Below are positions 1-5,231 of a stretch of DNA of 63,536 nt, piece after piece. The stretch is taken from the NCBI GenBank assembly GCA_964461905.1, contig CAYWVI010000003.1:1-63536 (forward strand), given 5' to 3'. Each line of letters opens with the position of its first letter. The stretch's first letter is position 1. Under the pieces are notes generated by a model. It made no database searches and was not told the origin of the DNA. It was given only the letters and a program-made list of their open reading frames with translations. This stretch comes from an uncultured Rhizobium sp. Its GTDB lineage: Bacteria; Pseudomonadota; Alphaproteobacteria; Rickettsiales; UBA1997. Position numbers and translations under genes: made by a program.

Positions 1-130
1 GAAATGTTTGAAGAGTGTAATCTAAATCAAAAATCACTCCAGAAAGGCATAAAAAGCGATGATTTAAATCATCGGAATTTTTTAAGTCAGGATTTCCAAC
101 CTCATCAATGTAAATACGATATTTCTTCAT
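1..130 (-). CDS. DUF3800-family (RNase H-like fold) protein, 5' part only; runs off the window edge and is not in the ORF track
   Basis: Manual translation from ATG at 130: MKKYRIYIDEVGNPDLKNSDDLNHRFLCLSGVIFDLDYTLQTF. The Y-I-D-E-x-G...F-L-C-L-S-G-V-I N-terminus is typical of DUF3800. Open to base 1. Confidence 0.7.
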   Translation of the reverse strand, partial: MKKYRIYIDEVGNPDLKNSDDLNHRFLCLSGVIFDLDYTLQTF

Positions 131-135
131 TGGGT

Positions 136-207
136 TTAATGTTTGGTTGTAGTGATTTTCTCCACACTAAAATAAGCCTCACTCTCATTCAAGCTTGGCG
201 GTAGCAC
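136..207 (-). other. dnaE: Frameshifted (-1) continuation of dnaE, ending in TAA
   Basis: After the C-run at 208-210 the alternative frame reads VLPPSLNESEAYFSVEKITTTKH*, matching the conserved DnaE (I/V)LPP(D/S)(I/L)NES..F.V motif. Confidence 0.8.
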
Positions 208-2639
208 GGGATTTTGTGGCTTTTAGCAACTTGTAAAAAAATGTTAATTTTGTCGGTATTGTCAATTTCAAGGTTAATTGAAGCGGTTAAAAATTCTGGT
301 AAAAAATGCGCTTTTAAAAATGCGGTTTGGTAAGAAATTAAGGCGTAAGCGGCGGCGTGTGATTTGTTAAAACCGTATCCGGCAAATTTATCAACCAGAT
401 CAAAAATTTCGCCTGCTTGTTTTTCTGGAACTCCGTTTTTCATTGCGCCTTCAGTAAAAATTGCGCGCTGTTGATCCATTTCTTCTTTAATTTTTTTACC
501 CATGGCGCGGCGTAGTAAATCTGCTGCACCAAGGCTGTAGCCTGCTAAAACTTTGGCAATTTCCATTACTTGTTCTTGATAAACAATTACTCCGTAAGTT
601 TCTTTTAAACAATTTTCTAAAAGTGGGTGAGGGTAGTTGATTGGCTCAGTTCCATGTTTGCGACGAATGTAAGTTGGAATATTATCCATTGGGCCGGGGC
701 GATAAAGCGAAATTAGGGCAATAATATCTTCAATTTTGTCAGCTTTCATTTGGCGTAAAACTGAACGCATTCCCGAAGATTCAATTTGAAAAACGCCAAT
801 TGAATCGCCAGTTGCAAGCATTTTAAAAGTTTGTTCGTCATCAAGGCGAATGTTGGAAATATCAATTTTTATGCCACGAGTTTTTTCAATTAATTTTACA
901 GCTTCAAAAATTGTAGTTAGGGTTTTTAAACCTAAAAAATCGAACTTTACTAGCCCCGCGCTTTCAGCATATTTCATTGAATAACCAACTGCTGGCATGC
1001 TGCTTCCTTCATCATTGTAGAGCCCGCAAATTTGATTAAGCGGTTTGTCGCCAATTACAACCCCAGCAGCGTGAGTTGATGCGTGACGATTTAGACCTTC
1101 AAGTTTAAGTCCAATATCAACCAATTTTGTGACTTGTGGATCATCTTTAATTGCTTGCTGCAAATCTTTATCCATCTCAATGGCTTTTTCTAAAGTCACG
1201 GCTTCAATGGCGTTGAAGGGAATTAATTTACAAATTCGATCAACTTGGTTGTAAGGCATTTGCAAAACACGACCAACGTCTTTAAGCACAGCGCGGGCTT
1301 GCAATTTTCCAAAAGTAATAATTTGGGCGACGTAATCTTTGCCGTATTTATTTTGCACGTAATCAATCACTTCGTCGCGGCGCGATTGGCAGAAATCAAT
1401 ATCAAAATCGGGCATTGAAACGCGATCTGGATTTAAAAAACGCTCAAAAAGCAAGCCAAAACGAATTGGATCAAGATCAGTAATTTGTAAAGACCAAGCA
1501 GCAATTGAACCTGCGCCCGAGCCTCTTCCCGGTCCAACTGGAATCTGATTATTTTTTGCCCATTTAATGAAGTCAGATACGATTAAGAAATAGCCGCAAA
1601 AATTCATTTTAGTAATTACCGACAGCTCAAAATCAAGGCGGGCAAAATATTCTTCGCGAATTTTGATTTGTTGTTCTGCAGAAATTTCTTCTAGCTCAAA
1701 TTTGCGCAACAATCTTAGTTCTAAGCCTTGATAAGCTTGGTTTTTTAACTCTTGTGCTTCGTCAAAATTTGGTTCGTTGCTAAATCTTGGCAAGGTTGGT
1801 GGTCTTTCAAATGCCATTACGTGGCACTTTTTGGCGATATTTACAGTGTTTTCAATCGCTTCTGGAATGTCGCAAAAAAGCTCTTCTAAGGTTTTTTGAT
1901 TTTTGAAATATTGTTGTGAGGAAAATTTCTTACGGTTGGCTTCAAAAAACGTGGTTCCTTCACCAATACAACTCAAAATATCTTGAGCCTCATGCATTTG
2001 GTCGGTTAAAAAATAAACGTCGTTAGTTGCCACCAAAGGCAGAGAATTTTTAAAAGCTAATTCAATAAATTTTTCTTCAATTGATTCTTCGTTTTTGGTT
2101 TTGTGACGTGTGATTTCAATGTAAAAATTGTCAGCAAAAATTTGTGCCAATTCTTTAGTTAATTCTTGAGCTTTGTTGTCTTGATTTTCTAAAAGCATCT
2201 TGCCGATTGCGCCTAAAACTCCACCTGAAAGAGCAATTAATCCGGCGGATTTTTCTTTTAAAAGCTCAAAAGAAACGTTGGGCGAAATGCCATTTTGTCG
2301 GTTTAAAAAAGAGTGGCTAACAAGATACATTAAATTTTCGTAGCCTTCTTGATTGCGCGCAATTAAAGGCAAAACAGAAAGCGATTTTTCGATGTCGAGA
2401 TTAGAAAGATTTTTATTAGAATTATCTCCCAAATTAACCAAAATTTCGCAGCCAATAATTGGTTGAATTCCCGCCTTTTTGCAAGTTGAAGAAAATTCAA
2501 GTGCGGCAAAAAGATTTTGGCAGTCCATAATTCCAAGAGCTGGCAGCTTTTCAGATGCTGCAGTATTTACAAGATCAGCAACCTTAATTGCGCCTTTGCA
2601 AAGTGAATAAGTTGTGTGATTGCGAAGAGGAATGAACAT
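189..2639 (-). CDS. dnaE: DNA polymerase III alpha subunit, N-terminal 816 aa (PHP plus polymerase core); frameshifted and truncated
   Basis: PHP motifs (HTTYSL, VATNDVY), GPGRGSGAGS, MPDFDIDF, KFDFLGL, YGFNKSHAAAY. Lacks the C-terminal ~300 aa (HhH, OB-fold, tau-binding) within the window. Confidence 0.95.
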   Translation of the reverse strand: MFIPLRNHTTYSLCKGAIKVADLVNTAASEKLPALGIMDCQNLFAALEFSSTCKKAGIQPIIGCEILVNLGDNSNKNLSNLDIEKSLSVLPLIARNQEGYENLMYLVSHSFLNRQNGISPNVSFELLKEKSAGLIALSGGVLGAIGKMLLENQDNKAQELTKELAQIFADNFYIEITRHKTKNEESIEEKFIELAFKNSLPLVATNDVYFLTDQMHEAQDILSCIGEGTTFFEANRKKFSSQQYFKNQKTLEELFCDIPEAIENTVNIAKKCHVMAFERPPTLPRFSNEPNFDEAQELKNQAYQGLELRLLRKFELEEISAEQQIKIREEYFARLDFELSVITKMNFCGYFLIVSDFIKWAKNNQIPVGPGRGSGAGSIAAWSLQITDLDPIRFGLLFERFLNPDRVSMPDFDIDFCQSRRDEVIDYVQNKYGKDYVAQIITFGKLQARAVLKDVGRVLQMPYNQVDRICKLIPFNAIEAVTLEKAIEMDKDLQQAIKDDPQVTKLVDIGLKLEGLNRHASTHAAGVVIGDKPLNQICGLYNDEGSSMPAVGYSMKYAESAGLVKFDFLGLKTLTTIFEAVKLIEKTRGIKIDISNIRLDDEQTFKMLATGDSIGVFQIESSGMRSVLRQMKADKIEDIIALISLYRPGPMDNIPTYIRRKHGTEPINYPHPLLENCLKETYGVIVYQEQVMEIAKVLAGYSLGAADLLRRAMGKKIKEEMDQQRAIFTEGAMKNGVPEKQAGEIFDLVDKFAGYGFNKSHAAAYALISYQTAFLKAHFLPEFLTASINLEIDNTDKINIFLQVAKSHKIPCYRQA

Positions 2640-3751
2640 TATTGATGTAGAGATTTAGTTTCTGTTGAGCTTTTCCAGTAATCGTGATTTATTTTGTTGT
2701 AACCTCTTTCTTCTTTAAACTTTTGAAAATCGTCACTTCCAACTGATGGAAATTCGTCTTTTATTTCATTGGCGAGAATGGACAAAACTTTATCCCCCAA
2801 CTTTTCTGAATAAGAACCTCTTAAAGCCTTCTCATACCAAGAGTTTAGGTCGTCCAGAGTAATTATTGATTGTATTTTAGACTGCCATCCAATTTGGCTT
2901 AAAAGTGATTTAATAATATTTTTTTCGGCGGTTTTACAGACGATTATAATTTTATCAGATCTGATTGATGTAACTACATTTTCGGCTAATTCTTCATCGA
3001 GAGATAAATGTTTTATTTGTACTACAGAGCCAAAATTAGCGTAAATATCTAACCCTCGATCTGCGGCATTAGTAACACCAACTCTATGAAAATGGGCGTT
3101 TAATGTTTTGCGATTATTATCTTTATCTAAGTTTAAAACTTTTTCTGCAAACTCAGAAAATTCTTGTAAGATATGTTGGTTTTTTTCATCAAAATAGATG
3201 TCTATTTTGATATCAATTGAGGTCACTAGTGCCTCAAATAGTGCGTAGACTACCATCTCAAAAATCTTATCTAGGCTTCTCTTTAAACCAGCTTGATTCC
3301 AAAATTGTTCAAGAAAACTTTTTAGTTCAAATGTGTTGCTAGAGCTATTTAAGCAGTAGCTTAAAGCGGATTCTAATTGTAAATGTTTACTCTCAAAAGC
3401 GTTGTAAATGTAGGCCTCAACCGCTCCATTATTCTTAATATTTTCATCACCTAAAATTGATAATATTTTAGGTGTTATGGCATTTTCTTCAAACAGGTTA
3501 TCTTGGAATTTTGCACTTGATGTGCTTACTCTTCCAAGAAATTGAAAGCATATTAGATCTCTCCATTTTTTAGATTTATTTCGATAGGTTTCTAGATCTA
3601 GCAAATTAATGCCTAGTTGAGGGTTGGTTCTGTGCATAAATAATATTTCAGCGATCTGAATTGGTTTATACAGGTGAACTCTTGATTTTGTTATAAGTTT
3701 ATCAATCGCCTGCTTGGCTAAGTCTAAATCGCTAAGCTCTTTTTTTCCCAT
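2639..3751 (-). CDS. Type II restriction endonuclease, HaeII family (probable RGCGCY specificity)
   Basis: N-terminus AKQAIDKLITKSRVHLYKPIQIAEIL and NAADRGLDIYANFG..VQIKHLSL resemble HaeII-family enzymes; lies directly downstream of a C5 methyltransferase. Confidence 0.75.
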   Translation of the reverse strand: MGKKELSDLDLAKQAIDKLITKSRVHLYKPIQIAEILFMHRTNPQLGINLLDLETYRNKSKKWRDLICFQFLGRVSTSSAKFQDNLFEENAITPKILSILGDENIKNNGAVEAYIYNAFESKHLQLESALSYCLNSSSNTFELKSFLEQFWNQAGLKRSLDKIFEMVVYALFEALVTSIDIKIDIYFDEKNQHILQEFSEFAEKVLNLDKDNNRKTLNAHFHRVGVTNAADRGLDIYANFGSVVQIKHLSLDEELAENVVTSIRSDKIIIVCKTAEKNIIKSLLSQIGWQSKIQSIITLDDLNSWYEKALRGSYSEKLGDKVLSILANEIKDEFPSVGSDDFQKFKEERGYNKINHDYWKSSTETKSLHQ

Positions 3752-4713
3752 AAATCGAATAATTGAATTTGATACTGCTCTGAGGTTTTTTGCTCAATGC
3801 TATTTAGCATGGAATTAGCAACGGCTTTTATCACTGGAACAGAAACACTATTGCCAGCCTGTTTTTTTAACTGGGTATAAGGAACAACAATTTTAAAAGA
3901 ATCTGGAAAACCTTGTAATCTTAATAATTCTCTTGGTGTAGGTCTTCTGATTCCATTAACCAAAAGATAATTATGCGATGCTCCAGCTCTTAATGCGCAA
4001 GAATATTTTAGAGCCGATATATTACCGCTTTTATTTTCATGCCATATTGATGGAATTGGGTAATTCTCTTTAACCTTTTCTTTTCTCTTCTTTTGAATTT
4101 CTTCAGAGGCGTAATATTTTTTATCTACGAATTTTTCATCCTCAAGAACACCAGATAAATCTGGTTTTACATCGAACGGCTTTGGAAAAGAAAATTTAAT
4201 ATTTTCTCTAAATCCAACAATTATTGTTCTTTCCCGTTTTTGCGGAACTCCAAAATCAAGAGAATTTAAAACTGTGTGATGCACAAAATATCCTAAATTC
4301 TCCAGATGTTCAATTATTGTTTTAAAAGTTCTTCCCCCGTCGTGAGATTTTAAATTTTTTACGTTTTCTAACATAAAAGCATAAGGCTTCTTTATCTTTA
4401 GAATCTCTTCGATGTTAAAAAATAAAGTTCCCCTCGTATCTAAAAATCCTTTTCTATCTCCGCATATGCTAAATGCCTGACATGGAAAACCTCCAAGCAA
4501 TATGTCGTGATCTGGTATGCTTTTTGGATCTATTTTTGTTATATCTCCGTAAGGTTTCTCATTGAAGTTGGCTTCGTAAGTATCTTGAGCAAACTTATCC
4601 CATTCAGAAGAAAAAACGCATTTACCACCTACAGATTCAAAACCTAGTCTAATACCTCCGATTCCTGCGAATAGATCAATAAATTTAAATTTGTGGCTGC
4701 GGTTTTTTATCAT
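3724..4713 (-). CDS. dcm: DNA (cytosine-5) methyltransferase, cognate MTase; start corrected to ATG at 4713
   Basis: Motifs FIDLFAGIGG, GGFPCQAF, ENVKNL, QKRERT, QAGNSV. Start overlaps the pgpA stop (TAATG). Confidence 0.95.
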   Translation of the reverse strand: MIKNRSHKFKFIDLFAGIGGIRLGFESVGGKCVFSSEWDKFAQDTYEANFNEKPYGDITKIDPKSIPDHDILLGGFPCQAFSICGDRKGFLDTRGTLFFNIEEILKIKKPYAFMLENVKNLKSHDGGRTFKTIIEHLENLGYFVHHTVLNSLDFGVPQKRERTIIVGFRENIKFSFPKPFDVKPDLSGVLEDEKFVDKKYYASEEIQKKRKEKVKENYPIPSIWHENKSGNISALKYSCALRAGASHNYLLVNGIRRPTPRELLRLQGFPDSFKIVVPYTQLKKQAGNSVSVPVIKAVANSMLNSIEQKTSEQYQIQLFDLWEKKSLAI

Positions 4714-5231
4714 TATTTTACCAAAAAAATCAAACAAACTCCAATTAATGCAGCAATGATTCCAGAAAGCAAATCGTCGAACATTACGCCGAATCCGCTT
4801 TTAAAATTGCGGTCGCAATAGCCGATGAAAGAGGGTTTTTTAATGTCAAAAAATCTGAAAAGAACAAAGCAAAAAAAGAGGTGGGCGGCGATTAAAATTG
4901 GCTGTGAAAAATATTTTTCAAAAAGCAAAGAAAAAGTAATTTGCAGCGCAATTATTTGCCCAACGGTTTCGTCTAAAACAATTGACTGGTGATCCATTTC
5001 GCCAAATTGTTTGGCGTAAATTGGTGAGGCGATGCAGCCGTAAATAAACGCCGCAACAAGAAAAATTCCCCAAAAAATATTTTGAGATTGCAGCGAAACT
5101 TGGTGATTAAAAAAGAACAAAGTCAAAAAAAACCAAAAAAGCAAAGAGGTAAAACTACCAAATGTTCCGGGAGCTTTTTTTGCTTTGCCAGAGTAGAAAA
5201 ATGTCAGAAAAAATTCGTGAAGTTTTAGCAT
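4713..5231 (-). CDS. pgpA: Phosphatidylglycerophosphatase A
   Basis: KAPGTFGS, IVLDETVGQ, FRFFDIKKP and GVMFDDLL motifs; hydrophobic protein. Confidence 0.93.
   Translation of the reverse strand: MLKLHEFFLTFFYSGKAKKAPGTFGSFTSLLFWFFLTLFFFNHQVSLQSQNIFWGIFLVAAFIYGCIASPIYAKQFGEMDHQSIVLDETVGQIIALQITFSLLFEKYFSQPILIAAHLFFCFVLFRFFDIKKPSFIGYCDRNFKSGFGVMFDDLLSGIIAALIGVCLIFLVK

Follow-up and report, generated by a model that had tools for sequence, protein, structure and literature searches.

Introduction

DnaE, the α subunit of DNA polymerase III (Pol III), is an essential protein that is regarded as one chain in genome-wide surveys. In Escherichia coli its C-terminal domain binds τ. A replicative-type polymerase that is naturally encoded by two genes without an intein occurs in Methanothermobacter; it differs from the case described here in polymerase family (family B), in domain of life and in break point. 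Here, we analysed the dnaE locus at the left end of a 63,536-nucleotide stretch of DNA (hereafter the window; GenBank contig CAYWVI010000003.1, assembly GCA_964461905.1), which was deposited as uncultured Rhizobium sp. and is placed by GTDB in the Rickettsiales. We argue that the replicative polymerase of this organism is very probably encoded by two genes, dnaE-N and dnaE-C, without an intein, that the split arose by a single fission, that the two pieces would work as a non-covalent complex and that a DUF3800-family gene next to dnaE-N is unrelated to the split.

The domains of E. coli α have been delimited as PHP (amino acids 1–280), palm-fingers (281–432 and 510–810), thumb (433–509), tip-of-fingers (811–928) and tail (929–1160), with the clamp-binding motif at positions 920–924 (Fernandez-Leiro et al., PMC4703070). 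The tip-of-fingers domain is the same as the little finger or β-binding domain. Compared with canonical DnaE1 proteins (E. coli, PDB 2HNH and 5FKU; Taq, 2HPI and 4IQJ), the pieces described here contain all domains in the same order, and the clamp motif and the OB fold are conserved. The difference is that they derive from two distant genes and that the chain is broken in the tip-of-fingers domain (E. coli 811–928), after its first strand.

Two dnaE genes at separate loci are also found in cyanobacteria (Ssp and Npu DnaE; Caspi et al., 2003, to the extent that it is cited in PMC3919608). The cyanobacterial chain is broken between KFAEY and CFNKSH, about 70 residues upstream of the break reported here, and the halves are ligated by IntN and IntC. 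In contrast, the corresponding motif is contiguous in our case there is no intein, and the pieces must stay separate chains. Fractured genes, in which gene halves with split inteins surround a free-standing endonuclease gene (Dassa et al., 2009; PMC2677866), represent the arrangement that was first imagined for our locus. Here, however, the DUF3800 gene is not flanked by gene halves but sits past the natural end of dnaE-N, no intein is present, and dnaE-C lies elsewhere, behind uppP. Finally, the E. coli α constructs 1–910 and 1–917 (PDB 2HNH and 2HQA) demonstrate that the catalytic body is a stable folded unit without the tail that carries the clamp, OB and τ regions. These laboratory cuts were placed after the β-binding domain, whereas the natural cut lies about 90 residues earlier and the part removed is provided as a second protein.

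A 2013 survey of approximately 2000 genomes reports only intein-joined splits and frameshift fragments (PMC3919608), and a search of a 2026 survey of more than 3000 species detected mention of neither split dnaE genes nor inteins (PMC12926913). The paper on the family UBA1997, whose members are described as epibionts of cryptophyte algae, does not mention dnaE (bioRxiv 10.1101/2023.01.31.526412).

Results and discussion

The window encodes the catalytic part of DnaE

The source of the window is a metagenome-assembled genome (MAG) of 1.38 Mb in 65 contigs with 34% G+C and a completeness of 94.9%; its contig C3 terminates at window base 1. Close to this end, dnaE-N (136..2639, minus strand) encodes the catalytic piece of Pol III α, comprising PHP, palm, thumb and fingers together with the first strand of the tip-of-fingers domain. 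As assembled, the open reading frame (ORF) runs from 2639 to 189 on the minus strand, comprises 816 aa and has the C-terminus ...AKSHKIPCYRQA*. At a CCC run (208..210, minus strand) the assembly is one nucleotide short (ATC CC- GTG), which cuts the conserved tail VLPPSLNESEAYFSVEKI. The adjacent frame reads NPVLPPSLNESEAYFSVEKITTTKH* and ends with a TAA stop at 136–138; after frame repair, DnaE-N has a length of 834 aa and is equivalent to E. coli α 1–825. Pfam detected PHP (PF02811), DNA_pol3_alpha (PF07733) and DNA_pol3_finger (PF17657) in the ORF of the window. The N piece of a congener could be aligned with residues 6–825 of E. coli α (2HNH/5FKU) with an E-value of 4e-219, and the two catalytic-aspartate motifs of DnaE-N, SMPDFDIDFC and VKFDFLGLKT, both align to their E. 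coli counterparts. The sequence KFAGYGFNKSH is uninterrupted within DnaE-N, i.e. the cyanobacterial intein site is not the break, and no Hint or intein domain was detected by Pfam in either of the two pieces.

The remaining part of DnaE is encoded behind uppP on another contig

An intact ORF of 376 aa on a different contig of the same genome (C1:42089-43219) encodes the missing part of the protein. This gene, dnaE-C, is located directly behind uppP: its ATG follows 6 nt past the stop of the uppP-like gene. The product begins with MQQEKFAIRFGLGAIKAVG and opens with the motif (A)IRFGLGAIKAVG, the break being located just before that motif. It aligns to residues 831–1075 of E. coli α and contains the rest of the β-binding domain with the HhH helices that bind DNA, the internal clamp motif QMSLF (aligned to the clamp-binding motif of E. 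coli, residues 920–924), the OB fold and the C-terminal domain. Pfam detected an OB fold as well as HHH_6, the latter from model position 21 on. For an AlphaFold2 model of a C piece, 28 sequences were aligned, the first of which shares 86% identity with the C piece of our genome. The HhH region, the OB fold and a C-terminal α/β domain were predicted with confidence, and the best Foldseek matches of this model were Taq Pol III α structures (4IQJ, 3E0D and 2HPI; 371–382 columns), the match extending over the entire C piece.

Each part occurs once in the genome. The N piece gave one match and the Pfam HHH_6 profile gave one match above the cut-off, at C1:42074-42310; an intact DnaE of a sister genus, used as a query, matched at two places only, the N and the C loci. 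With these three queries (N piece, HHH_6 and intact sister-genus DnaE), no second dnaE or polC was found in the genome. A DnaE1-type Pol III α is a single polypeptide of about 1150–1250 aa, whereas here, as in ten genera, it corresponds to two ORFs, which lie on different contigs in our genome. The other characteristics of DnaE1 that were examined are present, with PHP, core, fingers and the catalytic aspartates on the N piece and HhH, clamp motif, OB fold and C-terminal domain on the C piece.

The chain is broken in the loop of a β-hairpin

Residue 827 of the N piece corresponds to V825 of E. coli α and residue 8 of the C piece to I831. The break is thus located in the loop of a β-hairpin between E. 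coli residues 825 and 831, about 15 residues inside the tip-of-fingers domain and between short conserved segments (HFHV and IVYGIG in E. coli, with NDDGE between them). At that very loop, intact DnaE proteins of sister genera (L075, L076, L077 and L081; genera g13, g18 and g24) carry an insertion of 20–22 aa (e.g. ..FFRVELTEPEVGKNKSKVYYHGGKELAIRYGL..), suggesting that this site tolerates changes. According to this sequence comparison, the hairpin loop had expanded in the family before or beside the fission.

The frameshift, the stop and the length of 834 aa had been deduced in a preceding inspection of the letters of the window (the sequence-only reading) and were all confirmed. Its further proposals that the break falls into the loop preceding the HhH motif, at a distance from the intein site, and that no intein is present, were correct as well. 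As one of several ways out, it had considered a two-piece DnaE without an intein; this is the alternative that our data support, extended to about ten genera.

The two-gene arrangement is shared by about ten genera

To survey the family, 126 species genomes were searched with the C piece. Matching frames had mostly 376–452 aa in ten genera (g1, g10, g11, g12, g15, g19, g20, g22, g23 and g25) and mostly 1205–1383 aa, corresponding to an intact dnaE, in six sister genera (g13, g14, g17, g18, g21 and g24); the exceptions are a few frames cut by contig ends or local breaks. Every genome examined from the ten genera has the two-gene arrangement. The 12 congeners examined first possess an N frame, which has 826–860 aa except in one case where a contig end truncates it, and a separate C frame of 376–420 aa, which lies on another contig or far off on the same contig. 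For instance, N and C are separated by 74 kb on one contig of G004 and by 58 kb on a contig of 767 kb in G089, and in a MAG from long reads, labelled Rickettsiales bacterium UBA1997, the pieces are located near 0.05 Mb and near 1.10 Mb of a contig of 1.225 Mb. A full-length dnaE was found in none of the surveyed split-clade genomes, this 1.2-Mb long-read contig included.

All 31 inspected N pieces, which represent nine of the ten split genera, share one break point. They stop 2–4 residues (rarely up to 15) past the strand ..(A/S).F(S/D/T)(V/I)E, and the C pieces start with a Met and 0–10 additional residues ahead of (F/Y/L)AIRFGLGAIKAVG. In a maximum-likelihood tree of the N parts, a branch supported at 100/100 sets the 26 split rows apart, so that one change suffices to explain their distribution. 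These data fit a single ancient fission of dnaE in an ancestor from which about ten genera descend; these genera belong to one freshwater family of the Rickettsiales, which is probably UBA1997 in GTDB.

Among 45 C-piece loci that were examined, nearly all have uppP upstream of dnaE-C. In g11, the most basal split genus (L082 and L083), dnaE-C has no uppP upstream and is preceded by a gene of 912–915 aa, which is 72% identical to C35:10740-13451 of our genome; coupling to uppP thus does not extend to the whole split clade. A permuted order was observed in G137 (L057, positions 1306-4953; GenBank CAZOKU010000034; the same contig as G137:C34 and L088), which reads uppP, dnaE-C, TAA-ATG, dnaE-N and mfd. 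There is no spacer between the dnaE-C stop and the dnaE-N start, read-through from C to N would comprise 1216 aa, and the dnaE-C/dnaE-N junction is covered exactly by a Logan unitig of 151 nt that derives from a second sample. This order is derived, because the genome is nested deep in its genus in the tree.

We also considered an ancestral uppP-dnaE-mfd locus that was resolved by tandem duplication and reciprocal loss. This idea was rejected: the intact dnaE of 12 sister-genus genomes has no uppP or mfd nearby and the synteny is scrambled, the adjacency to mfd is also missing in basal split genera, and the G137 order is derived. Likewise rejected was G013, a member of another family, as an adjacent-split intermediate (L058, G013:C2:61500-67500, around 3170), where a run of N (XXXX) together with a frame change represents an assembly gap. 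Many C-like proteins of 320–360 aa in a library of 1.84 billion proteins looked like candidates for independent splits elsewhere; the three that were traced start 20–28 nt from the ends of contigs of 1–2 kb and represent fragments whose predicted start is a conserved internal Met.

Two local deviations were noted among the pieces. In genus g23 (L063/L064 and L099-L102; G096 and the long-read MAG G099), the N query matches as 1–433 and 418–811 within one open frame of 868–870 aa, which points to an insertion of about 25–40 aa near residue 420–430, in the palm/thumb region. The C piece of L050 (positions 2932-4230; CAMCFD010000049) is distributed over two frames of 123 and 308 aa; the local shift of frame or stop codon responsible for this may be a sequencing error.

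Both pieces evolve under purifying selection

The ratio of non-synonymous to synonymous substitution rates (ω) was estimated by the method of Nei and Gojobori (NG86) against close relatives, with synonymous divergence (dS) of about 1. For the N piece ω ranged from 0.08 to 0.12. Five of the six comparisons of the C piece yielded values between 0.10 and 0.19; the sixth, 0.065, stems from a dS-saturated pair. As judged from these ratios, which are rough yet leave no ambiguity, both pieces are under strong purifying selection. A break between the catalytic core and the clamp/τ module that is intein-free and kept under purifying selection in about ten genera would mean that the halves of a replicase can work as separate polypeptides. 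Such a system offers a natural test case for the communication between core and processivity module and a candidate split site for polymerase engineering. For annotation it is a warning, as pipelines will label the pieces as truncated genes or pseudogenes and will count an intact dnaE as missing from these genomes. Furthermore, the split dnaE is a clean synapomorphy for a subclade of the freshwater Rickettsiales family, which is probably UBA1997.

A model for the assembly of DnaE-N and DnaE-C

We propose that DnaE-N and DnaE-C assemble non-covalently. The tail strand of the N piece (..AYFSVEKI) would pair in trans with the head strand of the C piece (..FAIRFGLG) and thereby complete the β-binding domain. 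This pairing would tether the catalytic core to the module that carries the DNA-contacting helices, the clamp motif, the OB fold and the τ-binding domain. When the C piece was folded alone, its first 15 residues, i.e. the head strand, remained unplaced with a predicted local distance difference test score (pLDDT) below 50. The proposed strand pairing fits both this unplaced head in the model and the conservation of the two strands.

A more far-reaching version would be a replicase that consists obligatorily of two chains throughout the clade, with the DNA/clamp/clamp-loader module as a free subunit docked only by trans β-strand complementation. We regard this version as doubtful. If it were true, association and release of the subunit could serve as a built-in switch for processivity or polymerase exchange, and the break would be a natural, evolution-validated site at which C-family polymerases can be split without inteins.

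Several points weigh against a working two-chain polymerase as described above. The N piece assembled for our own genome does not contain the tail strand on which the pairing depends. Window positions 1–285 are reproduced exactly by no indexed run, and the best run contains, for this stretch, only a strain that is approximately 7% divergent. The ω values are rough, since dS is near saturation, all genomes compared are MAGs, and no RNA run among those searched contains the locus.

The first of these points leads to the possibility that the frameshift at 208–210 is real in this strain. DnaE-N would then be a protein of 816 aa without the tail strand, and the polymerase would either depend on frameshifting at the C run or do without strand complementation. 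The shift is present in the assembly, none of the indexed runs, which lack an exact match to this stretch, contradicts it, and a C run is a slippage-prone site. On the other hand, the congener G109, against which the assembly has a one-base gap, reads ATT CCT GTG, a co-occurring strain in the best-matching run X1 is in frame (...CAC GGA ATT CCC GTG CTA...), and so is the tail of dnaE-N in 31 of 31 relatives inspected. Moreover, the 23 codons past the shift are intact and perfectly conserved in the other frame, and the site is located only 208 nt from the contig end in a strain-mixed region whose coverage is low (approximately 7-fold depth in run X1). We therefore think that the base was probably lost by an assembly or consensus error; a true frameshift appears unlikely.

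Much less probable is that dnaE in the window is a decaying pseudogene or a chimera of the contig end, and that an intact replicase is encoded elsewhere or outside the bin. Such an explanation might be suggested by a 65-contig MAG that is 94.9% complete, by the position of the frameshift near the contig end and by the mixture of strains in the best-matching run. However, the genome contains no other dnaE or polC, no full-length copy was found in the surveyed split-clade genomes, ω is approximately 0.1 on both pieces and the position of the stop is identical across genera. In addition, the dnaE-N/DUF3800 junction recurs on a Logan contig from a wastewater metagenome, in a strain with a divergence of about 7%. 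As this contig is independent, the junction is not chimeric, contrary to the chimeric join at about position 136 that had been named as a possible source of error.

The DUF3800 gene is a later insertion behind dnaE-N

Downstream of dnaE-N lies the 5′ end of a DUF3800-family gene (2..130, minus strand; 43 codons). Its ATG at 130–128 follows five nucleotides (ACCCA) past the dnaE-N stop; the ORF opens MKKYRIYIDEVGNPD...FLCLSGVIF and is truncated as it exits the contig. The fragment of 43 aa is incomplete and reached 19.4 bits, slightly below the Pfam cut-off of 21, with an E-value of 0.0019. The full-length orthologue of G109 (262 aa), in which the first 43 aa are identical, matched PF12686 with 53.6 bits over model positions 2–148 of 149. 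Because of this orthologue, the assignment to the DUF3800 family is sound.

The gene order in G109 is dnaE-N, DUF3800 and mfd. A DUF3800 gene at dnaE-N was seen only in our genome, in G109 and in one co-occurring strain; it is absent after dnaE-N in G113, G007, G116 and G117. G113 and G109 are the two nearest relatives of the window in the DnaE tree. In G113, dnaE-N is followed by a spacer of approximately 100 nt with a hairpin and then by mfd. Alignment of G113 with G109 revealed a 0.9-kb insertion that starts at about codon 829 of dnaE-N, carries its own hairpin and substitutes a new ending for the final one or two dnaE-N codons (tail ..ERVQ* in G113, ..ERITTTTH* in G109 and ..EKITTTKH* in the window). 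Nucleotide identity to G109 is similar over DUF3800 and dnaE (83–90%), with no sign of recent transfer. A possible role in defence was tested with PADLOC, which gave no match for the DUF3800 protein. Neither the rest of the DUF3800 gene nor mfd, including the mfd N-terminus, was found in any contig of our genome. The region past window base 1 is an assembly gap, which perhaps results from differences between co-occurring strains at this site. The DUF3800 gene is a later accessory insertion between dnaE-N and mfd, at the natural end of dnaE-N, and plays no role in the split.

These observations bear on the central claim of the sequence-only reading, namely that an RNase H-like DUF3800 cassette had invaded and split dnaE, with dnaE-C located beyond the cassette. 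Its description of the downstream ORF, present at 130–128 and running off the contig, and the identification as DUF3800 proved right. At first sight, the start of DUF3800 only 5 nt past the dnaE-N stop and the loss of the last one or two dnaE-N codons are what a cassette invasion would leave behind. The synteny refutes it: DUF3800 is followed by mfd instead of dnaE-C in G109, and dnaE-C is found behind uppP, on another contig in our genome and in nearly all C loci examined. The same break point occurs in nine of the ten split genera, also in many genomes without a DUF3800 gene in the 1.5 kb downstream of dnaE-N, and the tree needs one fission only, which is far older than the insertion. We consider that there is hardly any chance that the cassette caused the split. 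The removal or bypass of the insert at the RNA level and a second dnaE, which had been suggested as remedies, could be excluded as far as this was testable, since neither an intron RNA nor a second dnaE was detected.

It is just as improbable that a cryptic split intein or RNA trans-splicing joins the two parts again once they have been made: the split dnaE of cyanobacteria is dealt with in this way (Caspi et al., 2003, within the limits of its citation in PMC3919608), but here the N tails of 2–15 aa and the C heads of 1–12 aa leave no room for the shortest known intein halves, no Hint or intein family of Pfam matched, no intron or ribozyme family was found near either piece, where only a tRNA upstream of uppP was detected, and the ATG of dnaE-C follows only 6 nt past the uppP stop.

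Genes upstream of dnaE-N

Directly upstream of dnaE-N are a HaeII-type restriction endonuclease gene (2639..3751, minus strand; Pfam RE_HaeII, PF09554, 459 bits) and a C5 cytosine methyltransferase gene (3724..4737, minus strand; Pfam DNA_methylase, PF00145, 325 bits). The stop of the endonuclease gene overlaps the start of dnaE-N (TAATG). A HaeII-type endonuclease had no match in any dnaE locus of the relatives searched. The endonuclease/methyltransferase pair is context and not part of the dnaE split. In the sister genome G064, whose dnaE is intact, a methyltransferase-like gene is located approximately 1 kb upstream of dnaE.

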